Source of the DNA: Hahella chejuensis KCTC 2396
GTDB lineage: Bacteria; Pseudomonadota; Gammaproteobacteria; Pseudomonadales; Oleiphilaceae
Length of the DNA stretch: 32,000 nucleotides
Assembly: GCF_000012985.1 (NCBI RefSeq)
Contig: NC_007645.1
Location: forward strand, 3,896,581 to 3,928,580
Direction: 5' to 3'
Positions 3,716-21,286 of the stretch are shown here, piece after piece. Position 1 is the first letter of the stretch. Every line of letters begins with the position of its first letter. The notes beneath the pieces are model-generated. The model made no database searches. It was not told where the DNA came from and saw nothing but the letters and a program-made list of their open reading frames with translations. Both the position numbers and the translations under genes were made by a program.

Positions 3716-4432
3716 TCAATTTATATTTGCCCCAATAATCTTCGCATATCTCTGTGCCGCCTTATTAGCTCCATAACCACCAAAGTACAGCATTAGTCCT
3801 CCTTGCTCAGTAATCTCAGCGAAATACTTTATATTTCCCCCTTCTCCAACAATCCTAATCTGATCACACAAATCATCTACAGGAGGACCAAACTCCTTCA
3901 ACATTCTGCTAATTTCTTTATATGTTTCATTTTTATTAGAACATTTCAGGCACTCTTCAACAGATTTAACCGGAGATGATATATGCGCGCTTTCTGCATC
4001 ACTTAATATTTCGTATTTCACATAGGCTTTTTGACACACTAACTTTTTAAAACTATCAGCATAGAACTGCCCAATATCACCACAACTACTATAATGAACA
4101 AGACCATTAGATACGTTCATTGCAAGATCAATTCCTGCATGTCCTGCACCAACAATCATCCAATCACCTTCAGGGAAATCCTCAGGAAATTCGTCAATTT
4201 CCTCATAAGTTAGAATTAGGTTTTTCACATCCGTAAATGCTGGAATACTACTTAACAGCCCGCCATCGTTTACTCCAAAAACTTCAAGAAAACTTACATA
4301 ATCCTCCGGGAGTTTCTTCCCGACAGCATCTTGTAGTTCATTAATTTCTTTATCGCTAGCACCTAGCACCGAATTATCTAGATTTTCGTCAATACAGCGA
4401 TACTTTTCTTTTATTTCATGCGCCCAGCTCAT
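3716..4432 (-). CDS. SUKH/SMI1-KNR4 family immunity protein (238 aa)
   Basis: The N-terminal pattern is typical of SMI1/KNR4: ..ASDKEINELQDAVGKKLPEDYVSFLEVFGVNDGG... The start lies 4 nt after the stop of the upstream toxin-like ORF. Confidence 0.75.
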   Translation of the reverse strand: MSWAHEIKEKYRCIDENLDNSVLGASDKEINELQDAVGKKLPEDYVSFLEVFGVNDGGLLSSIPAFTDVKNLILTYEEIDEFPEDFPEGDWMIVGAGHAGIDLAMNVSNGLVHYSSCGDIGQFYADSFKKLVCQKAYVKYEILSDAESAHISSPVKSVEECLKCSNKNETYKEISRMLKEFGPPVDDLCDQIRIVGEGGNIKYFAEITEQGGLMLYFGGYGANKAAQRYAKIIGANIN

Positions 4433-4436
4433 ATAT

Positions 4437-5108
4437 TCACCCCTTCATCGCCTTCATCGCCTTCATCGCCTTCATCGCCTTCTTCATATATACTTCTTCA
4501 TTATATTTATCAGAGCATGTATCGCAAGGATTCATTTCCGTACTAATATATTCTTTTATTTCATCCTTATTAGGTCCAGAATACGCATGAGGATTAGCCG
4601 TCTTTCCTCTCCACTGAGTTGACATTCCAGTTATCGGGCTATCTATTTCACTGGCAGATACAGCACATTTTGGCTCTGCACAAGCTCCCGGCATATTTCC
4701 TCCGTCTATTTGAGCAACACCATCCTCTTCGCCTAGTGTTTTATCACATACACTGTACTTCCCATAGCCGTATTTCTTATCCAATACCTGCTGTAACTTT
4801 TCTCTATTATTCTGAAATTTTTCTGAGGCCACATTTCCTGACAAACCTACACTGATACGCCCATCTTGATGTGTAAAGACATTAACTGCGGGGCTGCTTT
4901 TCTTACTTATCACCCCTTCCATCGACTCTATAACCTTTCTTGCTTCCTCTTGAGCCTCACGTGTTCTTGGGGGGTATTTATATGCTGTGTCTGGTCTCTG
5001 GTTAATTTCAGTTTCAGATTTATTGTTTGGACAGTAGCTTCCCGCCACCTCATTAAGGTTAGCCTCACTCTCCAAGCCTTCCTTTTCGAATTCACTTTCA
5101 TCCATCAT
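4437..5108 (-). CDS. Putative deaminase-fold toxin (223 aa), likely T6SS cargo effector
   Basis: Candidate zinc/catalytic motifs of the deaminase fold: G-A-CAE-PKC (C/H-x-E) and, about 50 aa later, NPCDTC (PCxxC). The start overlaps the stop of the upstream DUF4123 gene (ATGA at 5105-5108). A SUKH immunity gene follows. The C-terminus is an (AMK)4 repeat. Confidence 0.6.
   Translation of the reverse strand: MMDESEFEKEGLESEANLNEVAGSYCPNNKSETEINQRPDTAYKYPPRTREAQEEARKVIESMEGVISKKSSPAVNVFTHQDGRISVGLSGNVASEKFQNNREKLQQVLDKKYGYGKYSVCDKTLGEEDGVAQIDGGNMPGACAEPKCAVSASEIDSPITGMSTQWRGKTANPHAYSGPNKDEIKEYISTEMNPCDTCSDKYNEEVYMKKAMKAMKAMKAMKG
4442..4482. repeat. 9-bp tandem repeat, 4 full copies plus a partial (CCTTCATCG)n
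   Basis: CCTTCATCG occurs at 4442, 4451, 4460 and 4469, with a partial copy at 4478-4482. It encodes KAMKAMKAMKAMKG at the C-terminus of ORF 4437..5108 and ends about 10 nt before the immunity gene start. Confidence 0.95.
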
Positions 5109-6082
5109 GCTAGTACTTCTTCCATTATTGGCTGACTTCTACAGTAGTAATAAAGCGCTTCCAGGCGGCGGCTCAAGGAGCCAAAGTTTCTATTCTCAAG
5201 ATAATCAGAGCGAATCCAGGACAAGGACTTGTTATCCATAAAATCCCAACCATAAAGCACGCAGATATTGAGAAAGAAGAAGGCATCTTGGCGAATAGTG
5301 GCGCCGATACTTTGGGCCTGCTTGATTGCAGCCTCAAAACGCACAAAAAGCTCATTGTCATTCAAAGGCTGTAGCTTTTTCGTATAACGCCTCTTGAACA
5401 GTTTTACCATTCGCCGAACATATGCGTCCGCACTAACTTTGGCCAAAAGATCCCGTTGATCTGGTCTAATTTTCATTCCCAGACCACTAGATTCGGGATG
5501 TTTGCTAAGGTCAGTTATGTATAAATCGACCTCTGCTCCTGTGTCATTACTAGTACGCACTTCAAGCTCAATACCCCTGCGCCGATACCGACGAGAAAAC
5601 GAAGGCTCGTCACCCTCCATCCAGAAAGCGCCAATATCTCCCATAATTTTGTTTATCTGCGTCAAATCGCAGCTTGGCAGTAGTGCACCGAGAAAGCGTG
5701 GATCACAATACCTAAAGTACCAGTTCTCATTATTGGGACCGCGAACTTTAGCAATTCGCCGAAAATGTCGCACCAGATCAGGCATGGGCTTATTGCTTGC
5801 TAAAAAAATCCCCCAACTTTTTCCCCACGTTTCTTCAAACAACCAGTTGCTGAAGCTGCCTTCCTTCAGCTCGACTATATGAGGAGATGCAGCTTTTAAT
5901 TCCTCACCAACCTTTGGCCAAAAAAGAGTAGAACTATCGCAGGAGCTCTGGGTAATCGCAGGATATAGTCCATCATTACTGGCACAATCAATCAGCGCAT
6001 AATAATGTCGATAACCAGGACAACACCCTTTGAAGGTTTTTAGTGTCGGCTTTTCGTATAAACTCGCATCATTAGTGGGCAT
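5105..6082 (-). CDS. DUF4123-domain protein (T6SS effector adaptor/chaperone, Tap/TEC family) with a C-terminal extension
   Basis: DUF4123-like pattern: YYALIDCASNDGLY ... LFW....EL..ASPHIVEL....F..WL.E..WG.SWGIFL.S......LVRHFRR...V...N...WYFRYCDPRFLGALLP. It is translationally coupled to the downstream toxin-like ORF. Confidence 0.75.
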   Translation of the reverse strand: MPTNDASLYEKPTLKTFKGCCPGYRHYYALIDCASNDGLYPAITQSSCDSSTLFWPKVGEELKAASPHIVELKEGSFSNWLFEETWGKSWGIFLASNKPMPDLVRHFRRIAKVRGPNNENWYFRYCDPRFLGALLPSCDLTQINKIMGDIGAFWMEGDEPSFSRRYRRRGIELEVRTSNDTGAEVDLYITDLSKHPESSGLGMKIRPDQRDLLAKVSADAYVRRMVKLFKRRYTKKLQPLNDNELFVRFEAAIKQAQSIGATIRQDAFFFLNICVLYGWDFMDNKSLSWIRSDYLENRNFGSLSRRLEALYYYCRSQPIMEEVLA

Positions 6083-6935: not shown

Positions 6936-7823
6936 CTACTTATCTTTAATTATCCTTGCATTTTCAAATGCCTTTTCATATCCATCTAAACTCTTTCCAT
7001 GATCAACTTTCTCTGCACCAATAAGAGCAGCCTCTGTAGTTCCTGATTTAGTTTTCCCTCCTGGGACCCATTCACCAGGAATAGCACCAAATTCATTCCC
7101 TGTAGGCATTTCATAAGAAAATCTAGAGTCTCCTGGCTTTATTTGCACATACATTATTCTATCTTTCTCCAGTCCTTTTAAATCCATATCGCTTAGTCCG
7201 AGATTTAGCTCATCATTTAAAACATTTAAGTCACCAGTTGATTCAAATTTCTGAATAACCTGATCCATTTCTGACTTTAATCCTACAAACTTTCTTGGAG
7301 GGAGTGTCGAATGTCGGCTACCAATAGTCCAGCTTTCAACCACTATAAAAGCGCCGCCTTCAGAGGCAAATTTTTGCTTATAACTATCTATATAGGATTG
7401 AGGTAGGTAAGAAGCTGGATCATCAGGCTTACTACCTCTAGGCATACCTTCAACTTCCTTCATCTTCTGATAACTTTTTGCCGCCTCAGTACTGTTCGCA
7501 AAGTGTCCCTTAGTGTCTTTTTGGAACTGGTTCCAAGAGTTTTCCTTACAAGTCAACCCATACGGATCGACCCACCCCGTGGGATTCGGCGCATATTGAT
7601 AGTTGTTGTCTCCCCCCAACAGCCCAACTGGGTCCTGGTTGATGAACCGTGCGGCGCTGGGGTCATAATAACGGCGCCGGTTGTAATGCAGGCCGGTTTC
7701 TTCGTCGTAGTATTGGCCCTGGAAGCGCAGTGGGTTCTGTACGTCTTCGACGTCTTGCAGCGCCAGATTGCCGTAGGCTTTGTAGCGGGCGGACCAGACG
7801 ACTTCGCCTTCCGCGTTGGTCAT
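6936..7823 (-). CDS. Orphan Rhs cassette O1: core-end fragment plus unique C-terminal toxin domain (295 aa from an internal ATG)
   Basis: The sequence MTNAEGEVVWSARYKAYGNLAL...RFINQDPVGLLGGDNNYQYAPNPTGWVDPYGL is near-identical to the end of the main Rhs, followed by a unique ~210 aa tail. Two codons upstream of the ATG a TAG replaces the CAG of the main gene (P*EM vs PQEM). Homology decays further upstream, to about 7935. Confidence 0.8.
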   Translation of the reverse strand: MTNAEGEVVWSARYKAYGNLALQDVEDVQNPLRFQGQYYDEETGLHYNRRRYYDPSAARFINQDPVGLLGGDNNYQYAPNPTGWVDPYGLTCKENSWNQFQKDTKGHFANSTEAAKSYQKMKEVEGMPRGSKPDDPASYLPQSYIDSYKQKFASEGGAFIVVESWTIGSRHSTLPPRKFVGLKSEMDQVIQKFESTGDLNVLNDELNLGLSDMDLKGLEKDRIMYVQIKPGDSRFSYEMPTGNEFGAIPGEWVPGGKTKSGTTEAALIGAEKVDHGKSLDGYEKAFENARIIKDK

Positions 7824-7935
7824 TTCCTATGGCTTGTCCTGGTGGTAGTAATAGACCTGTGTATTCTGGATGAACGCCAACCGATGGAAGGAGCTTGTTC
7901 TTATAGACGTAGAGTTTGTTCAGAAATAGCTAGAG
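7554..7935 (-). repeat. Rhs core-end repeat, copy O1 (5' part eroded)
   Basis: Aligns by eye with 16323..16700 of the main rhs. It is near-identical over 7554-7823 and progressively mutated over 7824-7935. Confidence 0.85.
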
Positions 7936-9506: not shown

Positions 9507-10515
9507 TTATGATTTCCTCGTAATGACATAGTCGCTTTCTTTTTCTCTTTCAATAACTGACTTATTTAGCAATACCGCATCTGCTTTTCGACCGAGTTGA
9601 TTGCTAGTTGTCTCGCTAAATTCGTCTAAAACCTCTTGCAAAACTGGATCTAACTCTTCCATTTTGTCTGGTTTTAAACGTCCATCATCTGTAAAGTATC
9701 TTGCATATCGTCTTTGTAATTTGTCACTGGTAAAAAAGAAGTCTACGTCACTTGCTTTTAGCTCACCACGATCAACCCGATATGCGCCGCCTTTTGAAGA
9801 TACCCCCGTTAACTGCGCTCCCTCTGATTCCAATTTCCACATCATCAATCCCGAGTAAAGCAAGTTTATTTTTAAGATACCCTGATCTTTCCATAAGTTC
9901 GCCAGCATTCCTAAATCCACGAACTTTTTTCCCAGAGACAATGGTTTTTGATTCCCGATACGCTCTTCGCCTTCTTTGCCTATCACAATCTTTAGCCTGA
10001 AGTCCAAACGGATCGACCCACCCCGTGGGGTTCGGCGCATATTGATAGTTGTTGTCTCCCCCCAACAGTCCGACAGGGTCCTGATTGATGAACCGTGCGG
10101 CGCGGGGGTCATAATAACGGCGCCGGTTGTAATGCAGGCCGGTTTCTTCGTCGTAGTATTGGCCCTGGAAGCGCAGTGGGTTTTGTACGTCTTCGACGTC
10201 TTTAAGCGCCAGGTTTCCGTAGGCTTTGTAGCGGGCGGACCAGACGACTTCGCCTTCCGCGTTGGTCATTTCCTGCGGCGTGCCCAGGTGATCCAGATGG
10301 TAGTGGTAGACCTGTTTGTCCTGGATGAACGCCAGCGGGCGGAAGCTGTTGGGTTCGTAGACGTAGACTTTGTTGAGGTGGTTGCGCTGTTCCGAGAGCA
10401 ATACGTCGCCGTTCCACAGGAACTCGGTCTTGCCGAAGGCGTCCTGTTTGGCGATGCGGCGTCCCAGGGCGTCGTAGTCGTAGCAGGATTCCGACGCGCC
10501 CAGGCTCTCTCGCAG
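9507..10515 (-). pseudogene. Orphan Rhs cassette O2: core-end plus nucleotidyltransferase-like toxin, split by a frameshift in a G5/C5 run
   Basis: Track ORFs 9772..10401 and 9507..10112 are two halves of one gene. Removing one C from the C5 run at 9803-9807 joins ..DPFGLQAKDC...IGIRGSAVNG to VSSKGGAYRVDRGELKASDVDFFFTSDKL... This gives a G-S ... D-x-D pattern like Pol-beta-type nucleotidyltransferases, though the spacing is longer than the classic motif. The frame is open upstream to the TAG at 10516-10518. Confidence 0.7.
10000..10515 (-). repeat. Rhs core-end repeat, copy O2
   Basis: Encodes ESCYDYDALGRRIAKQDAFGKTEFLWNGDVLLSEQRNHLNKVYVYEPNSFRPLAFIQDKQVYHYHLDHLGTPQEM...WVDPFGL, almost identical to the main rhs at 16323..16800. 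Confidence 0.9.
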
Positions 10516-10670: not shown

Positions 10671-12164
10671 CTACATTTCATCAAGCATATTTAGCGCATC
10701 GCAAACTTCTTCCCTTATAACTCTATTGTTAATATTTTTCGCCGCAATCAACCCTTCTTTTGCTATCCTTCCTGCCGGTCTGTCAAGCGTTGCTATCCAG
10801 TGCAGGCAGTCAATACATTTTATATTTATATTAAAATTAAAGTCTCCATTTAATTCATATGGAATATAATTCAAAAGAGAAGTTGTCGCCTGCACCAATA
10901 ATTCGTCATTTATTGGCTCCTCGACAAGATCGGAAATCAGATCAACAACCGCTTCAGGATGAAACTCCTCTTTATAATTATCCAAAATATCGCAGAAATA
11001 TTTCATGTAAATTTGTTTTGGATTCTCTCTGCAAAAATAAAAGAGTCTAGCAACTAGCCCCCAATTCCTGTCGTGAATGGCACTATCAATAAGAGAAGAA
11101 ATTACTTCCTGTGGAGGTGAAGAGATGTCTCTTAGATCATCGAAAGAGCAGCTGGCAATCTGATTCTTAAATTCGAGTTTGTTCATGTTTTTTTTCTTGG
11201 AGTCTATTTTTGTCATTTTAATCGGTTTAAATAATTCCTTTGTTTCTGGGCTCAGGCCATAATTCAAGCTCCCTCTCTCGCTTTTCAGGTGAATATATTT
11301 TTCTTTTTCAGATAATGCATTAGTAAATTCCGGCAAACTGGAAAATTTGCTTAACTCAGGTTGGTTGGGAGCACGAGCGCCATGTTCTTCCAACAGACTT
11401 CTCGTGCCAGCTGGCACTTCCAATTTAATAAGATGGTCGTATTTTTTCTGTGTTTTGGGTTTACTTTTATACATCAGATATAAAGGATAGCTTTTATCTT
11501 GGGTAACAAAGTAGTCTACGCCTCGGGGAACAATATTATTTTCTTTCTGCATTCTTTCCCACTCTTTATCACAAACAGCTCTATAAAAAATTTCGACATC
11601 TGCACACTGCCCTCCGGGCAGACTACTCTCTGCCGTAGGTTGCACTGCTTCAGCCTTAGGACAATCCCCAGGTTTGGCAGTCAACCCATACGGATCGACC
11701 CATCCCGTGGGGTTAAGCGCATATTGATAGTTGTTGTCTCCCCCCAACAGTCCGACAGGGTCCTGGTTGATGAACCGTGCGGCGCTGGGGTCATAATAAC
11801 GGCGCCGGTTGTAATGCAGGCCGGTTTCTTCGTCGTAGTATTGGCCCTGGAAGCGCAGTGGGTTCTGCACGTCTTCGACGTCTTTAAGCGCCAGGTTGCC
11901 GTAAGCTTTGTAGCGGGCGGACCAGACGACTTCGCCTTCCGCGTTGGTCATTTCCTGCGGCGTGCCTAGGTGGTCCAGATGGAAGTGATAGACCTGTTTG
12001 TCCTGGATGAACGCCAGCGGGCGGAAGCTGCTGGGTTCGTAGACGTAGACTTTGTTGAGGTGGTTGCGCTGTTCCGAGAGCAGCACGTCGCCGTTCCACA
12101 GGAACTCGGTCTTGCCGATGCGGCGCCCTAAAGCGCCGTATTGTAAATAAGCCGCTTGATCCAG
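10671..12164 (-). CDS. Orphan Rhs cassette O3: core-end plus unique toxin domain fused in frame to an immunity-like domain
   Basis: The frame is open from the TAA at 12165-12167 to 10671. The core-end ..WVDPYGL is followed by a ~165 aa unique domain (EIFYRAVCDKEWERM...), then ..KIDSKKKN-MNKLEFKNQ... continues into a ~160 aa helical domain with no stop codon. The junction sits on a T8/A8 run at 11188-11195. Relative to the other copies, 18 nt of the core-end are missing near 12110 (..GRRI-GKTEFLW..). Confidence 0.75.
   Translation of the reverse strand: MDQAAYLQYGALGRRIGKTEFLWNGDVLLSEQRNHLNKVYVYEPSSFRPLAFIQDKQVYHFHLDHLGTPQEMTNAEGEVVWSARYKAYGNLALKDVEDVQNPLRFQGQYYDEETGLHYNRRRYYDPSAARFINQDPVGLLGGDNNYQYALNPTGWVDPYGLTAKPGDCPKAEAVQPTAESSLPGGQCADVEIFYRAVCDKEWERMQKENNIVPRGVDYFVTQDKSYPLYLMYKSKPKTQKKYDHLIKLEVPAGTRSLLEEHGARAPNQPELSKFSSLPEFTNALSEKEKYIHLKSERGSLNYGLSPETKELFKPIKMTKIDSKKKNMNKLEFKNQIASCSFDDLRDISSPPQEVISSLIDSAIHDRNWGLVARLFYFCRENPKQIYMKYFCDILDNYKEEFHPEAVVDLISDLVEEPINDELLVQATTSLLNYIPYELNGDFNFNINIKCIDCLHWIATLDRPAGRIAKEGLIAAKNINNRVIREEVCDALNMLDEM
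11683..12164 (-). repeat. Rhs core-end repeat, copy O3
   Basis: Near-identical to 16323..16790 apart from scattered SNPs and an 18-nt internal deletion. Confidence 0.9.
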
Positions 12165-13890: not shown

Positions 13891-14856
13891 GTAACTATCT
13901 CATAACCTCATTGACGCCCCTGTAGCCGCCACATCCGCCGAAACCATAACAGACCACATGCCAATTGCAGCAATCCCAGATAGTTGCTGTCCTTTTTGTC
14001 ATAGCGAATCAGTAACGCACGGCACTTAGACAGCCAACCAAACGTGCGCTCCACTACCCAACGCCGGGGCTTTCCACTTGGATGACGGTCCGCTGGCTGC
14101 GCCTCCTCGCCAATTCGGCAGATATGCGGTATGTAGTCATGCCGGGCTGCCACGTCTTCGCTCGCCACATTGTCATACCCCTTATCCAGGCATAAATGCT
14201 GCCGCGCCTCCACCGTTGGAGCCGGACGCTCTACCACAATCGACTCCAGCGTCGCTTCCAGCAGCTTATGGTCGTTGACATTGGCTCCGGCGATGACGAG
14301 TCCCAAGGGGCCTCCCTCGGCTTCCACCAGCAGGCTTTTCTTGGTTCCCTTCTTGCCTCGGTCTGTCGGGTTCGGCCCCACATTCTCCCCCCCCAAAGCG
14401 GGCTTTCCCCAGCCAGCCGTCCGCACTTTGCCATTCCCAGTCCACCCCTTCCAGTTCCTGGCAGTCTCGCAATAGACTCGCCCAGATCTTCTCCATCACG
14501 CCGTTTTTACTCCAGCGCTGAAACCAGCGATGGACCGTGGCGTCATCCCCAAATCGGCGGGGCAACTGGTTCCACTGACAGCCTGAACGCATCCGAAAAA
14601 TAATCCCGTTCAAATAGCCCCTCCAGTTGCCGATGGGGCGGCCACCCTTGGCGCTGGGTTGCCAGTCTTCTTTTAAAATGGGTTCGATTCGTAGCCATAG
14701 CTCGTCCGGTACTTCCCATAGAGTGTCCAGGGGTTTCGATTTACTGGACGGGGCGCTTGAGTCCTTTTGTGACATGACGTTTCCTTATCAGAGAAGTGGC
14801 GCCTCAGTGAACCGGCAAAGGTTAAAAAATTCAAGTGGGGGTTATGAGATAGTTAC
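13891..14856 (-). mobile_element. IS5-family insertion sequence (IS1031/IS427-like), 966 bp, with 17-bp terminal inverted repeats and a 3-bp TTA target duplication
   Basis: The left end GTAACTATCTCATAACC (13891-13907) is the exact reverse complement of GGTTATGAGATAGTTAC (14840-14856). TTA flanks both ends (13888-13890 and 14857-14859). The element carries a two-frame DDE transposase. Confidence 0.9.
13908..14775 (-). CDS. IS5-family DDE transposase in two overlapping frames (orfA 14266..14775, orfB 13908..14426)
   Basis: orfA contains ..CQWNQLPRRFGDDATVHRWFQRW... orfB contains ..GPNPTDRGKKGTK...LDKGYD...WVVERTFGWLSKCRALLIRYDKK. The frames meet at a C8/G8 run (14387-14394). One G fewer would give a continuous ..GKARFGGENVGPNPTDRGK.. 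protein. Confidence 0.85.
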
Positions 14857-15374
14857 TTAGCCATTAGACCCAAAGGATCCACCCACTCTATGGGATTCAG
14901 CACATATTCGTAGTTGCTCTCACCTCCCAGTAACCCTGCAGGGTCCTGGTTGATGAACCGTGCGGCGCTGGGGTCATAATAACGGTGCCGGTTGTAATGC
15001 AGGCCGGTTTCTTCGTCGTAGTATTGGCCCTGGAAGCGCAGTGGGTTCTGTACGTCTTCGACGTCTTTCAGCGCCAGGTTGCCGTAGGCTTTGTAGCGGG
15101 CGGACCAGACGACTTCGCCTTCCGCGTTTGTCATTTCCTGCGGCGTGCCCAGGTGATCCAGATGGTAGTGGTAGACCTGTTTGTCCTGGATGAACGCCAG
15201 CGGACGGAAACTGTTGGGTTCGTAGACGTAGACTTTGTTGAGGTGGTTGCGCTGTTCCGAGAGCAGCACGTCGCCGTTCCAGAGGATCTCGGTCTTGCCG
15301 AAGGCGTCCTGTTTGGCGATGCGGCGTCCCAGGGCGTCATAGTCGTAGCAGGATTCCGACGCGCCCAGGCTCTC
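14853..15374 (-). pseudogene. Orphan Rhs cassette O4, 5' part: core-end truncated by the IS insertion (the stop codon is supplied by the IS terminus)
   Basis: ..ESCYDYDALGRRIAKQDAFGKTEILWNGDVLLSEQRNHL...GGESNYEYVLNPIEWVDPLGLMAK*. The TAA at 14853-14855 lies inside the IS inverted repeat. The frame is closed upstream by the TGA at 15375-15377. Confidence 0.85.
14865..15374 (-). repeat. Rhs core-end repeat, copy O4
   Basis: Near-identical to 16323..16800, except that the last ~60 nt before DPLGL have diverged. Confidence 0.9.
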
Positions 15375-15469: not shown

Positions 15470-15793
15470 TTAAATCTTCTTAATAAGAGAGTTAATTTCT
15501 TTTTTTAAACTTTCAAGAAGTTTCTTTTTCTCTTCACCATCTACATTCAATGAACATATTTCATACACTATACTTCTTGCTTTAGAGTATACATGACTGG
15601 GAGTAATAGGTTTTTTAAAATTTTTAAAAACCTCTCGCTCCTCTTCAGTAAGGCTAATTTGGACGCTTGTCGGCATCATCACGAGATTGTTTTCTTTAAT
15701 ATCTATCTGATGCGCAAAGAATGTGATGCGAGCACGACCAACTTCTGTGTAAAGAGCTCCACCATGTTCTTGGAAAATGCACAACTGTTTCAT
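15470..15793 (-). CDS. Hypothetical protein (107 aa), cognate-position immunity protein of the main Rhs toxin
   Basis: ATG start 10 nt after the rhs stop codon, same strand, AT-rich. No motif recognised. Confidence 0.65.
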   Translation of the reverse strand: MKQLCIFQEHGGALYTEVGRARITFFAHQIDIKENNLVMMPTSVQISLTEEEREVFKNFKKPITPSHVYSKARSIVYEICSLNVDGEEKKKLLESLKKEINSLIKKI

Positions 15794-15803
15794 ATAGTTT
15801 TGT

Positions 15804-18800
15804 CTAACCTTTTTTATATGGTTCTACTTTATGCTTTTGTATATTGGTGACTTTAGGATTTTTATTTAAAGCGGGCTCTTCGTACTCTTTCCATATAGCG
15901 CCTTCATAAGCCTGAACTACATTTACATCTCCTGAAGCACGCTCAGCATAATCCTCTGATATCGCGGACCATAACCGCCTTCCGTCTGTTGGCTTTCCTG
16001 ATCCCCAGTCTTCGTAGATGAAGAACTCGTCCAGATATTTCCAATTATTAAATATATTTCCTCCAGGAGTCATCTCCAGAGTGGTCGCCCCTGGAATACT
16101 TTCTCTCAAATTTAACGCAAACTCTTCTGCTTTAGGGTAATTTCCTGACCAGAATACTGCGCCATTATTTGGGCTACTTAAATCGAGAAGCTCAGCCATT
16201 TTATCAAAGTCTCTGGCTTGAAAAAGCTTCCATGCAGCAGATGCCTCCGTAGAATTTTTAAACTGCCCTTTGGAACGCTGCTGGAACTCGTTCCACCTAT
16301 TTGGTTTGGACTCCTTACAAGTTAACCCAAACGGATCCACCCACCCCGTGGGATTCGGCGCATATTGATAGTTGTTGTCTCCCCCCAACAGTCCAACGGG
16401 GTCCTGGTTGATAAATCGTGCGGCGCTGGGGTCATAATAACGGTGCCGGTTGTAATGCAGGCCGGTTTCTTCGTCGTAGTATTGCCCCTGGAAGCGCAGT
16501 GGGTTCTGTACGTCTTCGACGTCTTGCAGCGCCAGATTGCCGTAGGCTTTGTAGCGGGCGGACCAGACGACTTCGCCTTCCGCATTGGTCATTTCCTGCG
16601 GCGTGCCCAGGTGGTCCAGATGGTAGTGGTAGACCTGTTTGTCCTGAATGAACGCCAGCGGACGGAAGCTGTTGGGTTCGTAGACGTAGACTTTGTTGAG
16701 GTGGTTGCGCTGTTCCGAGAGCAATACGTCGCCGTTCCACAGGAACTCGGTCTTGCCGAAGGCGTCCTGTTTGGCGATGCGGCGTCCCAGGGCGTCGTAT
16801 TGGTATTCGGTCTTTTGCCCGTCTTTTTCGATGGCGATCAGCTGGTTCTGCTTGTTGTACTGGTAACGGGTCTCCAGCTTGCCGCCTTTGCCGCGTTTTT
16901 CACGAATCAGGTTGCCGGCGGCGTCGTATTCGAAGTGGCGGTCGCCATGGAAATTCAGGCGGTTGCCCTTGGCCTGATTCTGACCATCGAGAATATTGCC
17001 CGCCGGGTCGAAGGCGAATTCTTCGTTGCAATAGCCTTCGACGGTTTTCAGGCGATCCAGGGCGTCGTAACGGTAATGAGTGGTCCCTTTTCTCAGGTCG
17101 TCGATGAGCGCCAGATTGCCGCTGGCGTCATAACCGTAGCTGCGCTCGATGATGCGCGCTTTGCTCTGACGATGACTGACCCGATGACGGATCAGGCGTC
17201 CCATGACGTCGTAGTCGTAGCGGGATTCCGCCGCGCCTTGGCGGCGACGTAATTCGCGTCCGTCCTCATCCCGTTCGATGCTGGCCAATACGTCGCCATT
17301 GAAACTGGCCTGGGTGAACAGGCCATGGCGGTCATAGCCGAAGCCGAGGACGCCGCCATCCGGCAACAGGGATTGGATGCGGGCGCCCAGTGGATTGTAT
17401 TCATGACGCAGTCGCTGCCCGTCCTGGATTTCCTCCGCCAGACGTCCTGTCGGCGTATAGGCGAATTCCAGGGTGCGGTAAGGGTTGCTGGCCTGCGTCA
17501 ATTGACCGTTGGCGTTGTAGGCGAAGCGGCTGATGTCGCCGTCCGGGCTGTGCTTTTCACGCAGGCGCCCCATGGGGTCGCGCTTGAACAGCGTGGTGTG
17601 TTGCGCGCGAATGCGTTCGTCGTCATGTACGCCTTCAATATGCGCTTTCAGATGGCCCGCCGGGTCATACTGATATTGCTGCACCCGGCCGTCGAAGCCG
17701 ATTTCCTGAATCAGACGCTCATTGCGGTCATAGGCCAGTTCATAGCGCTCGCCCTTTTCGTTGATCAGGCCGATCAGGTTGCGTTCTTTATCGTACAGAT
17801 ACTCAAATGTGTGGCCGGCCGGGTCGATGCGTTTGCGCACCTGGGCCAGGCCGTCATACACGTATTCGGTGCAGCGGCCGGCGGCGTCGATAAAGTGCGT
17901 CAGCTGGTCGTTGGCGTTGTAACGCATTTTCAGGACGGAGCCGTCCGGGCGTTTGACTTCGGTGACGTTGCCGTTGCGGTCGTACTGATAGGCCGTGGTT
18001 TGTCCCTGATGATCGGTGGCGGCGCGGACCTGTCCCTGCGCGTTGTAGGCGTAACGGGTGGTGTGCTGGTTGTCCGTTTCGCTGACCAGTTGGCCTTCCC
18101 GGTTCCACTGCAGCTCCCGGGCCTGTCCCAGGGCGTCGATGATCTTTTGCGGCAGCCCCTGGGCGTTGTATTCGTACTGGGTCTGCGCGCCTTCTGGATC
18201 AGTGATGCGGGCCAGCAGGCCCTGTTCGTTGTACTCGCGACGCCAGACATGGCCGAGGGCGTTGGTGATCGCCACCGGCATGCCGTCGTCGTTGTAGTCG
18301 ATTTTGTAATGGCCGCCGTTGGCGTCGATCAGGGCGGTTAACTGGCCGTTGTCATTGTAGGCGTAGTGGGTGCTGTGGCCGTTGGGATCGGTCTGCTCCA
18401 CCAGATTACCGGCGTTGTCGTACGCGCGTCGGGTGATTCCGCCTTCCGGATCGATTTCTTTAACGATCTGGCCGCGATCGTCATAGTGGAAAGTGGTTCT
18501 GCCGCCGTTGCTGTCGATGGCGTGGGAGGTCTTGTTGGCCGGGTCCCATTCGAAGCGGTAGTCATAGACGCCCTGGTCGCCCCACTGACGCACACAGCGG
18601 GCGGCTTTGTCGTAGCGGCTCCACTCGAAATAAAAGCTGAAGCCGGTCTTCAGGGTGCGGCGGGTGATGACGTGGTTGCGATAGGCGTAGGATTCACCCG
18701 CGCCGGCCGGGTCCCGCACCTGCGCCAGATCCTGGGCGTCGTCGTATTCGTACCTGACCAGGGTGTCCACATCGCCGTCCGCGCGCAGCGACTGGATCTC

Positions 18801-20042
18801 GCAGATCAGTCCCTGGGCGTTATGCAGCACGTACAGACGTTTGCCCCAGCTGGTCTGAATAAGAGTGACCGGTCGCTCGTAGCCGTCCAGGTCCTGCCAG
18901 TATTGAATGCGCACGCCATTGCCGACGCCATCCAGCAATCCTTCCAGACGGTAGACGCCGCCGGCGCCCACAAACAGGCGGATGGGCTCGCCGCGTTGTT
19001 TAAGTACGTAATGGGTGTCGTCAATCCGGCGCAGTTCCAGATGTTCAGCGGCGTTGCGGACGGTCTGGCCGGGTTCCGCCAAAGGAAAATCAATATAGCG
19101 GCCTTCGTCCGTGGTGAAGACCAAACGTCCTTCCTGCTCCTCCAGCTGCTGACACAGCATGTGGGTCCAGCCCACGCCCAGACCGCGTTGATGGGGATTG
19201 GAGGATTTGTAGGTGCGCTTCCAGATAATCGGCAGAGGGCCGGCGACGGTGAAATCGGTCAGATCCAGCAATTCCTCGCCGGTGACCATGCTGATAGGTT
19301 CGCCGCTGGTGCAGACCTTTTTGTTATCCGGCGTGGTCGCGCCATTGTCATTGCCGCCGGATTTTTCGCTGACGCTGCTGTCGCTCGAGGGTGACGCGGA
19401 GCCAGCTCCGCCGGATTTTTCGCACTCCTCGCAGAAAGGTAACTCATCTTTGGCGGTGTTCTTAAGAGCCTGTGCTTGCGCCTGCTCATCCACCGCGCTT
19501 TCCGGCGCTGCGGGAGCCGCCTGGGCGGGAGGAGCGGAATAGGTCTTGGGTGGAGCCTGATGACTGGTGGACTCTCTGGGTTTGCTTTCCCAACCTGGGT
19601 TGCCATTTAGCGCAGTGACATCCATGACTTCGCCGGTAATCGCCGGCGGTGGTGGTGGTGCGGGGTTGGCGCGATTAATCAGACGCACGGCCAAAGTCAG
19701 TTCAGACACATTGGGCTTGAGGCCGTCTTCGCTCTCGCTCACAACAGAGCAAAACGGCTTTTTCTTGTCGGTAAAGACCAACAGGATTTCGCCTCGTTCG
19801 AGCCCTTTAACAAAGTCTTCTTTCCACTTACGCAGATGCCGTGAACCTCGGCCGGGAAACCCGCCAAACGATGAGCGAAAGTGACTCCCCTTTAAGTGAT
19901 TAACGACATCGCCGACTTTGGCGTCTATGTTCAGACAACGCTCGGCATAGCTGGAAGCGAAAAAGGGGGATTCTACAAACGGCAGGTCCGCAACGGTGAT
20001 GTCAGACCAATGCTTAAATACATAACTGCGAGTGGAATACAT
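15804..20042 (-). CDS. Full-length Rhs/YD-repeat polymorphic toxin (~1412 aa from the ATG at 20042) with an ADP-ribosyl cyclase/CD38-like C-terminal toxin domain
   Basis: Rhs N-terminal plug motif CTSGEPISMVTGEELLDLTDF..IWKRTYKS. Dozens of YD repeats (..YDxxGxL..) follow. The core-end motif is ..YYDPSAARFINQDPVGLLGG..PTGWVDPFGL, and a ~170 aa AT-rich tail comes after it. The ATG at 20042 has AAGGA ~12 nt upstream. The track start at 20075 is a TTG. Confidence 0.9.
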   Translation of the reverse strand: MYSTRSYVFKHWSDITVADLPFVESPFFASSYAERCLNIDAKVGDVVNHLKGSHFRSSFGGFPGRGSRHLRKWKEDFVKGLERGEILLVFTDKKKPFCSVVSESEDGLKPNVSELTLAVRLINRANPAPPPPPAITGEVMDVTALNGNPGWESKPRESTSHQAPPKTYSAPPAQAAPAAPESAVDEQAQAQALKNTAKDELPFCEECEKSGGAGSASPSSDSSVSEKSGGNDNGATTPDNKKVCTSGEPISMVTGEELLDLTDFTVAGPLPIIWKRTYKSSNPHQRGLGVGWTHMLCQQLEEQEGRLVFTTDEGRYIDFPLAEPGQTVRNAAEHLELRRIDDTHYVLKQRGEPIRLFVGAGGVYRLEGLLDGVGNGVRIQYWQDLDGYERPVTLIQTSWGKRLYVLHNAQGLICEIQSLRADGDVDTLVRYEYDDAQDLAQVRDPAGAGESYAYRNHVITRRTLKTGFSFYFEWSRYDKAARCVRQWGDQGVYDYRFEWDPANKTSHAIDSNGGRTTFHYDDRGQIVKEIDPEGGITRRAYDNAGNLVEQTDPNGHSTHYAYNDNGQLTALIDANGGHYKIDYNDDGMPVAITNALGHVWRREYNEQGLLARITDPEGAQTQYEYNAQGLPQKIIDALGQARELQWNREGQLVSETDNQHTTRYAYNAQGQVRAATDHQGQTTAYQYDRNGNVTEVKRPDGSVLKMRYNANDQLTHFIDAAGRCTEYVYDGLAQVRKRIDPAGHTFEYLYDKERNLIGLINEKGERYELAYDRNERLIQEIGFDGRVQQYQYDPAGHLKAHIEGVHDDERIRAQHTTLFKRDPMGRLREKHSPDGDISRFAYNANGQLTQASNPYRTLEFAYTPTGRLAEEIQDGQRLRHEYNPLGARIQSLLPDGGVLGFGYDRHGLFTQASFNGDVLASIERDEDGRELRRRQGAAESRYDYDVMGRLIRHRVSHRQSKARIIERSYGYDASGNLALIDDLRKGTTHYRYDALDRLKTVEGYCNEEFAFDPAGNILDGQNQAKGNRLNFHGDRHFEYDAAGNLIREKRGKGGKLETRYQYNKQNQLIAIEKDGQKTEYQYDALGRRIAKQDAFGKTEFLWNGDVLLSEQRNHLNKVYVYEPNSFRPLAFIQDKQVYHYHLDHLGTPQEMTNAEGEVVWSARYKAYGNLALQDVEDVQNPLRFQGQYYDEETGLHYNRHRYYDPSAARFINQDPVGLLGGDNNYQYAPNPTGWVDPFGLTCKESKPNRWNEFQQRSKGQFKNSTEASAAWKLFQARDFDKMAELLDLSSPNNGAVFWSGNYPKAEEFALNLRESIPGATTLEMTPGGNIFNNWKYLDEFFIYEDWGSGKPTDGRRLWSAISEDYAERASGDVNVVQAYEGAIWKEYEEPALNKNPKVTNIQKHKVEPYKKG
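16323..16800 (-). repeat. Rhs core-end repeat, master copy inside the main rhs
   Basis: This segment (..YDALGRRIAKQDAFGKTEFLWNGDVLLSEQRNH... to ..WVDPFGL) recurs at four downstream loci. Confidence 0.9.
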
Positions 20043-20308
20043 TCGGAGTACGTCCTTTGTAAAGCGACACAGCAAGCCAAACGGGCCATGGCGTCATGAA
20101 AACGGTTACTGGTAACTGGGGGCGATCAGCGAATACCTTAAAACTAACAACGACACATACCGCCCACTTGCCTTACGACACGTCGCGCCAATCTCCATGA
20201 GCTTGATTTACGCGCATACGTAGCCAGTTAAGCGTTAATACTGGGAATTTTCCTTCATTATTCAGGTGGTTATTTCGTGATGTAAGCAACGTTTTTGTGA
20301 TGATGGCG

Positions 20309-21286
20309 TCAATTATCTTCTGACTTGCTCTTAAACATCTTCAAGGGATCAGCTAAAGCTTCTGCAATTAGACTCTTAACCCTCCGGTTGCAAAAGCGAC
20401 TTTTCACCGGTCCCGCGAATTTCGGATCATGCATAACAATACTGATCAACGCAATGTCCGGCGCCCAACCTGCGTAGTTCAATGCCTGGCGGAGTCCGTT
20501 AACATGCGCGCCATGCTCTTCCGTCTCGCAACCATTCACCCAGGATTTATAGCAAGGTGGAGAGCCTCCATCGCCGATAGCGGCCACTTCAAACCCAACA
20601 TCTTCTGTTTGGCCTTTGAACCGGAACATTTTAGGGTTAAAAGCCCATTTTGGTCCGCTCCACATCAGATAAGCCAGTTCCATCAGCCCCTGTTTAGAGA
20701 CATAGCGTTCTCCATCAAACTCTACAATCAGTCCAGAGTATAAGTGAGCTAACTCAAACATCGCTTTTCTGAGCTGAAAGAAGTCAGGCAAACGATTATG
20801 AAACACTGACGGATCAAGAGTGAATTTAATGGAACTGCCGCTCGGTCCGTCGTATCTGAAACTTTCCAACGGCGCTAATACATCGCCTTTTCCGAAGACC
20901 TGCCTCCATCGCCATGCGCCATTGGAGCTTTCGATAGTCAGCTTTTCTGAAACTGCGTTTACCGCCGCCAGCCCAAGTCCGCCTCCCAGCACATGTATAT
21001 GAGGAGCATGGTCATCCGCCGTTGGTTTATCGTGATGATGGGTGAGATAGCGTTCGACAAGATTGTGGGCGCTATCTTCTACTGGAAATGGAAAGCCCGG
21101 GCCGTCATCAATGACTATAATTTCACACTCACTGACATCCACCTTCAATGTCGTCGCCCTACCCGCCAAAAATAAATCCACAACATTTGCGACTAGCTCG
21201 TAGATAACATGATTGACGGCATTGTGGTCGATATCGCCAAAGTACATGCCAGGACGTTTTCTCACTGCGTCTTTAAAGGACAACAT
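20309..21286 (-). CDS. GyrB/ParE N-terminal-like GHKL ATPase plus transducer domain protein (325 aa) lacking TOPRIM and tail
   Basis: It aligns with the E. coli GyrB N-terminal 43-kDa region. DAVRKRPGMYFGD matches DAVRKRPGMYIGD. HVIYELVANVVDLFLAG matches HMVFEVVDNAIDEALAG. VIDDGPGFP matches VQDDGRGIP. GGGLGLAAVNAVSEKL matches GGLHGVGVSVVNALSQKL. DVGFEVAA...EEHGAHVNGLRQAL matches GIGVEVAL...GGTHLAGFRAAM. HDPKFAGPVKSRF matches PDPKFSSQTKDKL. The ATG is preceded by AGGAG. Confidence 0.8.
   Translation of the reverse strand: MLSFKDAVRKRPGMYFGDIDHNAVNHVIYELVANVVDLFLAGRATTLKVDVSECEIIVIDDGPGFPFPVEDSAHNLVERYLTHHHDKPTADDHAPHIHVLGGGLGLAAVNAVSEKLTIESSNGAWRWRQVFGKGDVLAPLESFRYDGPSGSSIKFTLDPSVFHNRLPDFFQLRKAMFELAHLYSGLIVEFDGERYVSKQGLMELAYLMWSGPKWAFNPKMFRFKGQTEDVGFEVAAIGDGGSPPCYKSWVNGCETEEHGAHVNGLRQALNYAGWAPDIALISIVMHDPKFAGPVKSRFCNRRVKSLIAEALADPLKMFKSKSEDN

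Follow-up and report, generated by a model that had tools for sequence, protein, structure and literature searches.

A CD38-like toxin tip on an Rhs protein of Hahella chejuensis and its candidate immunity gene

Introduction

Toxin domains of the ADP-ribosyl cyclase (ARC) class, termed Tox-ARC, were described computationally in 2012 on RHS carriers and on carriers associated with the type V, VI, and VII secretion systems (T5SS, T6SS, and T7SS), with Imm74 and Imm63 named as their immunities (Zhang et al., 2012; PMC3482391). Two papers from 2025 reported the structure, catalytic residues, NAD(P)+ hydrolysis, and immunity of LXG- and PAAR-borne ARC toxins, and both list Rhs among the ARC carriers (PMC12356396; PMC12605009). 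Here we analyze a 32,000-nucleotide (nt) stretch of Hahella chejuensis KCTC 2396 (NC_007645.1, positions 3,896,581 to 3,928,580 of the forward strand; hereafter, the window), in which a minus-strand Rhs gene ends in a variable tip of 172 amino acids (aa) and is followed by a small open reading frame (ORF) that encodes 107 aa. We propose, with a probability of roughly 0.8, that the tip is a CD38-type NAD(P)+ glycohydrolase that depletes NAD(P)+ in target cells and is neutralized by the 107-aa protein, HCH_03783.

The two characterized ARC toxins provide the closest comparisons. Tac1, whose immunity protein is Tci1, is a T7SSb LXG toxin of Streptococcus parasanguinis (PDB 9OUF) that shares with the Hahella tip the ARC core fold, the tryptophan of an FWSG motif, an I-W pair ahead of the catalytic glutamate, and the residues E516, W540, and E573 (E83, W118, and E148 in the tip); each is a toxin domain at the C-terminus of its carrier, and a known or candidate immunity gene lies downstream (PMC12356396). 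By analogy with Tac1, the tip would be expected to convert NAD(P)+ to nicotinamide and ADP-ribose via a cyclic ADP-ribose (cADPR) intermediate. Tac1 differs from the tip in sequence (~28% identity), in its carrier (LXG/T7SS as opposed to an Rhs shell in a gamma-proteobacterium), and in its immunity protein, which belongs to Imm74 whereas that of Hahella does not. Furthermore, the tip has a segment after its TLE motif that is ~8 residues longer and an additional N-terminal junction module.

ARCtox and its immunity protein ARCimm (PANA_2924/2923 of Pantoea ananatis; PDB 9RO8) comprise a Gram-negative, contact-dependent, PAAR-fused T6SS toxin system in which W273, E299, W323, and E356 of the toxin correspond to W58, E83, W118, and E148 of the tip (PMC12605009). 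ARCtox is ~26% identical to the tip and carries PAAR and transmembrane domains together with an EagR chaperone, whereas the Hahella Rhs protein has no PAAR or Eag gene nearby. ARCimm has ~75 aa by its reported masses and cross-protects with a Listeria immunity protein (PMC12605009); a sequence link between the Hahella 107-aa protein and the known ARC immunity families was not found.

The metazoan cyclases (Aplysia cyclase, 1LBE/3ZWM; human CD38; BST-1/CD157) belong to Pfam family PF02267 and carry the same four signature motifs in the same order as the tip, along with a shared TLE(D/M)T-PG segment. Unlike them, the tip lacks the C-terminal third of the family profile. It also contains a single Cys and hence none of their five or six disulfides, as would be expected for action in the reducing cytoplasm; the tip is predicted to be a cytoplasmic toxin, whereas the metazoan enzymes are signaling ecto-enzymes. 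The Tox-ARC class predicted by Zhang et al. (2012; PMC3482391), in which T6SS-type RHS polymorphic toxins of gamma-proteobacteria carry an ARC domain, describes the tip exactly except in its immunity: Imm74/Imm63 are replaced by an uncatalogued 107-aa family and, in a sister sub-clade, by an uncatalogued ~167–208-aa family.

Results and Discussion

Family and Fold of the Rhs Tip

The element under study is the following:

15807..16322, minus strand: 172-aa putative ARC (CD38-like ADP-ribosyl cyclase/NAD(P)+ glycohydrolase) toxin tip, identified with Pfam, profile searches, AlphaFold2, and Foldseek

Together with its TAG stop, the tip occupies 15804–16322 (172 codons plus stop) and starts directly after the sequence DPFGL. 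This is exactly the extent given in a preliminary description of the window, made from the letters alone, which had proposed a CD38-type tip paired with an immunity protein. The isolated tip scored 31.2 bits (E = 1.8e-7) against PF02267, above the gathering score of 25 bits, with tip residues 20–167 aligned to positions 34–181 of the 241-position profile. When the whole 1423-aa protein was used as the query the score was 24.4 bits, slightly below the gathering score, and this may be why the ARC domain is missing from the public annotation, which reads ‘Rhs family protein’ and nothing more (ABC30516.1).

Searches of the PDB led to the same family. The tip as a single sequence (phmmer) matched 9OUF (E = 5.8e-5), 9RO8 (3e-4), and Aplysia cyclase (0.14), while a profile built from the tip and eight relatives (nine sequences) matched 9RO8 at 2.2e-12, its best match, 9OUF at 1e-9, and Aplysia cyclase and mouse and bovine CD38 at ~2e-6. 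The resemblance to ARC/CD38 enzymes noted in the preliminary description is therefore far beyond chance. Among 1.84 billion proteins, the nine-sequence profile retrieved 1212 cluster representatives (E ≤ 1e-3); the relatives listed are C-termini of polymorphic toxins carried on Rhs and LXG scaffolds, and in nearly all of them the ARC domain sits at the C-terminus of the protein.

The AlphaFold2 model of the tip (mean predicted local distance difference test [pLDDT] score, 84.5; predicted template modeling score, 0.81) has the two-lobed alpha/beta ARC fold. All 50 PDB matches listed by Foldseek were Aplysia cyclase, CD38, BST-1, Tac1, or ARCtox, each with a probability of 1.00. The top structural matches were metazoan cyclases (E ~1e-6), and the query TM-score (TMq) was 0.64–0.69 for Aplysia cyclase, compared to 0.45–0.49 for Tac1 or ARCtox. 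The profile and structure checks proposed in the preliminary description thus both returned the ARC family. Collectively, the profile, fold, and active-site evidence supports assigning the tip to the ADP-ribosyl cyclase/CD38 (Tox-ARC) family, and it is very likely that the tip is an ARC-family toxin domain.

One label among these matches was examined and rejected. The molecule name of PDB entry 9OUF is ‘Ribonuclease’; this is a deposition name, and both the title of the entry and the associated paper identify the protein as the ADP-ribosyl hydrolase Tac1 (PMC12356396). The label could mislead automated annotation.

The first ~25 residues of the tip seem to be a junction module shared between toxins, not a piece of the ARC domain itself. 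Residues 1–25 (16248–16322 in the window, TCKESKPNRWNEFQQRSKGQFK) are common to the unrelated tip of an Rhs paralogue in Hahella sp. KA22 and H. aquimaris (TCKENSWNTFQSRTKGHF...), and the segment is also present in LXG and Rhs relatives.

Active Site

Residue equivalences were counted along HMMER alignments, with numbering anchored on the residues named in the two toxin papers (PMC12356396; PMC12605009), and gave the following positions:

16149–16151, minus strand: W58 (GAVFWSG), equivalent to ARCtox W273 and to Tac1 chain position 47 (residue 490 by calculated offset)
16074–16076, minus strand: E83 (TTLEMT), equivalent to ARCtox E299 and Tac1 E516
15969–15971, minus strand: W118 (RLWSAIS), equivalent to ARCtox W323 and Tac1 W540
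15879–15881, minus strand: E148 (WKEY-E-E), equivalent to ARCtox E356 and Tac1 E573 and, by alignment, the essential catalytic glutamate

The catalytic tetrad is intact. Its motifs, all four of which had been quoted in the preliminary description, are present at tip residues 57 (FWSG), 81 (TLEMT), 117 (LWSA), and 144 (WKEYEE), and the Aplysia and CD38 strings given there agree with the PDB sequences. We take the equivalents of W58 and W118 to be W125 and W189 of CD38 and that of E148 to be E179 of Aplysia cyclase. Among the aligned relatives, E83 and W118 are invariant, W58 is kept in all whose sequence spans that position, and E148 is kept in all that are full-length. The catalytic glutamate had been placed within KEYEE; this is true of E148, but its neighbors E146 and E149 vary, with N/D and A/K at these positions in close relatives. 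The residues at positions -5 and -4 from the catalytic glutamate are I-W in both the tip and Tac1.

Published mutants indicate what these positions do in the characterized enzymes, where changing them eliminated or severely lowered activity (PMC12605009; PMC12356396). In ARCtox, alanine at any one of W273, E299, W323, or E356 abolished toxicity (PMC12605009). In Tac1, E516 and E573 correspond to E146 and E226 of CD38; activity was fully lost only with E573A, whereas E516A led to the release of cADPR; this ‘second’ glutamate drives hydrolysis of the cADPR intermediate (PMC12356396).

Predicted Activity and Reaction Products

By analogy with Tac1 and ARCtox, the tip would act in the following way. 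The YD-repeat shell would enclose the 172-aa tip, and the shell’s own protease would cut at DPFGL. Contact-dependent delivery into a neighboring cell would presumably use a type VI secretion spike. In the target cytoplasm, the tip would then function as a minimal, disulfide-free CD38-type ADP-ribosyl cyclase/hydrolase. W58 and W118 would position the substrate, E148 would attack the nicotinamide-ribosyl bond of NAD+ and NADP+, and E83 would promote hydrolysis of the cyclic intermediate, such that the net products would be nicotinamide and linear ADP-ribose(-phosphate). Collapse of the NAD(P)+ pool would then stop growth of the target cell, while the producer would be protected by the 107-aa protein, most likely bound 1:1 over the catalytic cleft.

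The preliminary description had allowed for either an NAD-consuming or a cADPR-forming toxin. The first part agrees with the expected depletion of NAD(P)+; the second does not, because the invariance of E83 and an I-W pair identical to that of Tac1 suggest no net release of cADPR, and linear ADP-ribose would be the product by analogy with Tac1 and ARCtox. It is unlikely that the tip is instead a true cyclase or base-exchange enzyme whose toxicity or signaling effect comes from released cADPR, 2'-phospho-cADPR, or nicotinic acid adenine dinucleotide phosphate rather than from depletion of NAD(P)+. Such an activity was raised as a possibility when the class was described (Zhang et al., 2012; PMC3482391), and the bacterial enzyme Nac1 does release cADPR (PMC12356396). 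Moreover, the sub-clade to which the tip belongs keeps a ‘TLEMTPGGxIFNxW’ segment that aligns with the eukaryotic ‘TLEDTLPGYMLNSLVW’ and has ~8 residues more than its counterpart in Tac1 and ARCtox, and the tip model superposes on more of Aplysia cyclase than of either toxin, which leaves room for a product spectrum unlike that of Tac1. However, cADPR release by Tac1 required the loss of E516, the counterpart of the invariant E83; ADP-ribose is the sole product of both characterized toxins (PMC12356396; PMC12605009); and cyclases of the Nac type have no immunity gene, whereas the tip has one.

The 107-aa Candidate Immunity Gene

The ORF that follows the Rhs gene is the following:

15470..15793, minus strand: HCH_03783, 107 aa, candidate cognate immunity gene, starting 10 nt after the Rhs stop

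This ORF matches HCH_03783 at 100% identity, and no other ORF separates the Rhs stop from the next orphan Rhs core. An initial homologue search with HCH_03783 recovered only the orthologue in H. aquimaris, at 85% identity. The ratio of non-synonymous to synonymous substitution rates (dN/dS) between the two genes is 0.13 (18 non-synonymous and 25 synonymous differences), and HCH_03783 is under purifying selection. In H. aquimaris (CP132203.1, locus L001, 7400–8324), the gene stands intact beside an orphan remnant of the ARC tip that is 93% identical in DNA and that has been pseudogenized by a deletion at the core/junction, a CAA-to-TAG nonsense codon, and a 1-nt frameshift. The immunity gene has clearly been retained here as an orphan.

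Additional homologues accompany the closest relatives of the tip. A scan of GTDB genomes with the tip profile returned two loci, including the contig of Teredinibacter waterburyi that revealed a homologue of the immunity gene: within 971 nt, this contig encodes a 78% identical tip fragment and, after 8 nt, a 109-aa protein with 45% identity to HCH_03783. A search with the resulting three-sequence alignment expanded the family to nine members. In three loci other than that of H. chejuensis (L007, L009, and L011; the T. waterburyi contig and two metagenome contigs), a family member lies directly downstream of a tip that is at least 74% identical to that of Hahella; metagenome contig L009 encodes a 1354-aa Rhs protein with a 74% identical ARC tip, and the tip on metagenome contig L011 is 75% identical. 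Toxin and immunity gene are thus co-inherited. Another member, L010, lacks an ARC tip upstream of it and stands as an orphan. All members share a conserved N-terminal (I/V)F(Q/E)EHGG motif in which F-x-E-H-G-G is invariant.

The family appears to be undescribed. Pfam and NCBIfam scans of its members returned nothing above noise, none of the nine members matched the Imm74 or Imm63 profiles even at E up to 10, and a profile search of the PDB returned designed helical proteins only (E = 0.03 or worse). The partner protein is therefore as unrecognizable as the preliminary description had stated, and the ORF itself is a real gene. Its adjacency to the toxin, its co-occurrence with the closest tips, its dN/dS, and its retention beside a dead toxin together support the role of cognate immunity gene that had been proposed for it.

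Alternatively, the ORF might be an unrelated hitch-hiker, with protection encoded elsewhere, for example by an Imm63 or Imm74 gene outside this locus. The lack of a match to any known immunity family, the failure of structure prediction to give a usable model, and the absence of an ARC tip upstream of L010 would be in keeping with this. Yet no other ORF lies in this interval, the gene starts 10 nt after the Rhs stop, and its homologues follow the closest tips in an equivalent position at four more loci, from two genera and metagenomes. The gene is also under purifying selection and outlives its toxin in H. aquimaris, and orphan immunity genes such as L010 are typical of polymorphic toxin systems. 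We consider the hitch-hiker explanation quite improbable.

Sister Tips and a Second Candidate Immunity Family

Tips that are 50–56% identical to the Hahella tip are followed by members of another, mutually related family of ~167–208 aa. The carriers of these tips include Rhs orphans in metagenomes and in a metagenome-assembled genome of Pseudobacteroides, and one LXG protein. Metagenome contig SRR12337186_35861 (L002, 1–2456 and 5001–6069) encodes two ARC tips, one on a main protein with a Pfam ARC match and one on an orphan, each followed by a family member of different size (200 and 167 aa). No Pfam match was found for this second candidate immunity family. Homology between the two families was considered and rejected, as hhalign probabilities were 0.2–0.6%. 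Colautti et al. remarked that non-Imm74 immunity proteins serve some of the ARC toxins linked to a T6SS, and a second uncatalogued family downstream of the sister tips agrees with this. Like the 107-aa family, a switch of immunity within one ARC sub-clade appears to be undescribed, although both are incremental observations.

A bolder combination of these observations would have the 107-aa protein found an undescribed ARC-immunity family in which the (I/V)F(Q/E)EHGG loop plugs the catalytic cleft, one ARC sub-clade (~50% identical tips) switch between two unrelated immunity folds, and the sub-clade with the eukaryote-like TLExTPGGxIFxxW segment release cADPR or carry out base exchange. Taken jointly, we regard this as rather doubtful.

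Weight of the Evidence and Novelty

Several observations weigh against the tip being an NAD(P)+ glycohydrolase that is secreted on an Rhs shell and neutralized by HCH_03783. The tip is only ~26–28% identical to the characterized ARC toxins, and these are LXG- or PAAR-borne with none carried on Rhs. Aplysia cyclase has the same ‘second’ glutamate yet mostly releases cADPR, and E83 alone consequently does not fix the product. The AlphaFold2 model of HCH_03783 reached a pLDDT of only 45 (from a two-sequence alignment), which, together with the lack of a match to known ARC immunity families, makes the mode of immunity conjectural. Finally, Pfam and NCBIfam scans of the ORFs around the Rhs gene in the window found no VgrG, PAAR, or Eag chaperone, and no recognizable targeting domain was found in the first ~245 residues of the Rhs protein, so the secretion route is unproven.

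It is highly improbable that the ARC-fold tip has been retargeted to another N-glycosidic substrate (e.g., a nucleotide or NAD-capped RNA) or that it has lost catalysis and is toxic through binding. Its low identity to characterized enzymes and the ‘Ribonuclease’ label of 9OUF would favor such a reading, but that label is a deposition name, and Tac1 was shown to be an NAD(P)+ hydrolase (PMC12356396). The four NAD-site residues are kept in the tip and its relatives, which argues against a loss or change of function.

The preliminary description had anticipated a rarely characterized effector/immunity pair, which is at odds with the literature: ARC toxins were characterized in 2025 (PMC12356396; PMC12605009), and Rhs-ARC fusions are listed in those papers and in the 2012 survey (PMC3482391). 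The kind of toxin is already known, and the Hahella tip is a new, diverged member; the pair does not constitute a new class of system. A specific predicted function, depletion of NAD(P)+, can nevertheless be proposed by analogy for a gene whose annotation goes no further than ‘Rhs family protein’. The tip also provides a first candidate for an Rhs-borne ARC toxin in a marine algicidal bacterium, and its key residues are defined. The two candidate immunity families suggest that ARC toxins are neutralized by more immunity families than the described Imm74/Imm63 pair, which bears on the evolution of immunity specificity and on cross-protection between ARC toxins. In addition, a remote enzyme family (~25% identity) was correctly recognized from a raw reading of the sequence.

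The Rhs Carrier Gene

The carrier gene and its parts are the following:

15804..20042, minus strand: complete gene of the Rhs polymorphic toxin, encoding 1412 aa when read from the ATG; the listed ORF reaches a TTG at 20075
19086..19304, minus strand: DUF6531 N-terminal plug region of the Rhs shell (Pfam PF20148, E = 6.6e-23)
16315..16673, minus strand: 3' end of the conserved Rhs core, one of five direct copies (Pfam RHS PF03527 at 16524–16634)
16323..16337, minus strand: DPFGL, C-terminal self-cleavage motif within PTGWVDPFGL, read from the sequence
14857–15215, 11674–12032, 9992–10350, and 7546–7895: four downstream copies of the core 3' end, found by sequence comparison

Read from the ATG at 20042, which has an AGGA 10 nt upstream, the ORF is identical to ABC30516.1/WP_011397583.1 of H. 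chejuensis KCTC 2396, and the match is exact only with this start. The locus has the features of an Rhs polymorphic toxin: a YD/RHS-repeat shell, an RHS core, a PxxxxDPxGL motif, a variable tip, the downstream 107-aa ORF as candidate cognate immunity gene, and orphan modules. Pfam identified 14 RHS_repeat stretches, DUF6531, the RHS core (PF03527), and a TEN_YD-shell. The plug region carries the sequence ‘EPISMVTGE’, which we take to resemble the N-terminal autocleavage motif of T6SS Rhs proteins, reportedly described by Jurenas et al. in 2021. Judging from characterized Rhs and Tc toxins, cleavage at DPFGL would free the tip while it is still within the shell.

The terminal ~360 nt of the core occur as five direct copies with 75–94% identity to the reference copies. 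The four extra core ends downstream indicate that the locus comprises a main Rhs gene and four orphan tips, and the repeated 3' end is the substrate for tip exchange. An Rhs protein of H. aquimaris with a 95% identical N-terminus bears another tip. GC content falls from ~0.60 in the Rhs core to 0.40–0.45 in the tip and 0.35 in the 107-aa ORF, as is usual for a toxin/immunity cassette that has been acquired.

Delivery and Neighboring Genes

Export by a T6SS is presumed from the architecture of the protein and from the literature, and it is the weakest link in the proposal. A PAAR domain was not found in the Rhs protein with Pfam or NCBIfam, and the sole T6SS-type marker nearby is a DUF4123 adaptor cassette ~10 kb away. 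This separate effector cassette (3716–6082, minus strand) consists of three genes: one of the T6SS adaptor-type DUF4123 family, one for a 223-aa protein with no assigned family, and one of the SUKH-1 (SMI1/KNR4) immunity type. The genes immediately upstream of the Rhs gene encode a stand-alone ATPase similar to the N-terminus of GyrB and a 134-aa unknown protein. The former, a 325-aa stand-alone ORF at 20309–21286, matches only the N-terminal ATPase part of gyrase B/ParE, with an NCBIfam E of 3e-41 that is nevertheless far below the cut-off.

Downstream, the four orphan core-end/tip modules lie between 6500 and 15300 of the window, with small unknown ORFs after each. Beyond the RHS core, none of the three orphan tips that were scanned (all but the ORF at 9772–10401) had a Pfam match. 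An insertion sequence (IS) element at 13908–14775 contains two ORFs, with DUF4096 and DDE_Tnp_1 domains, and is apparently frameshifted; the first orphan tip (14853–15269) is cut off by this element.

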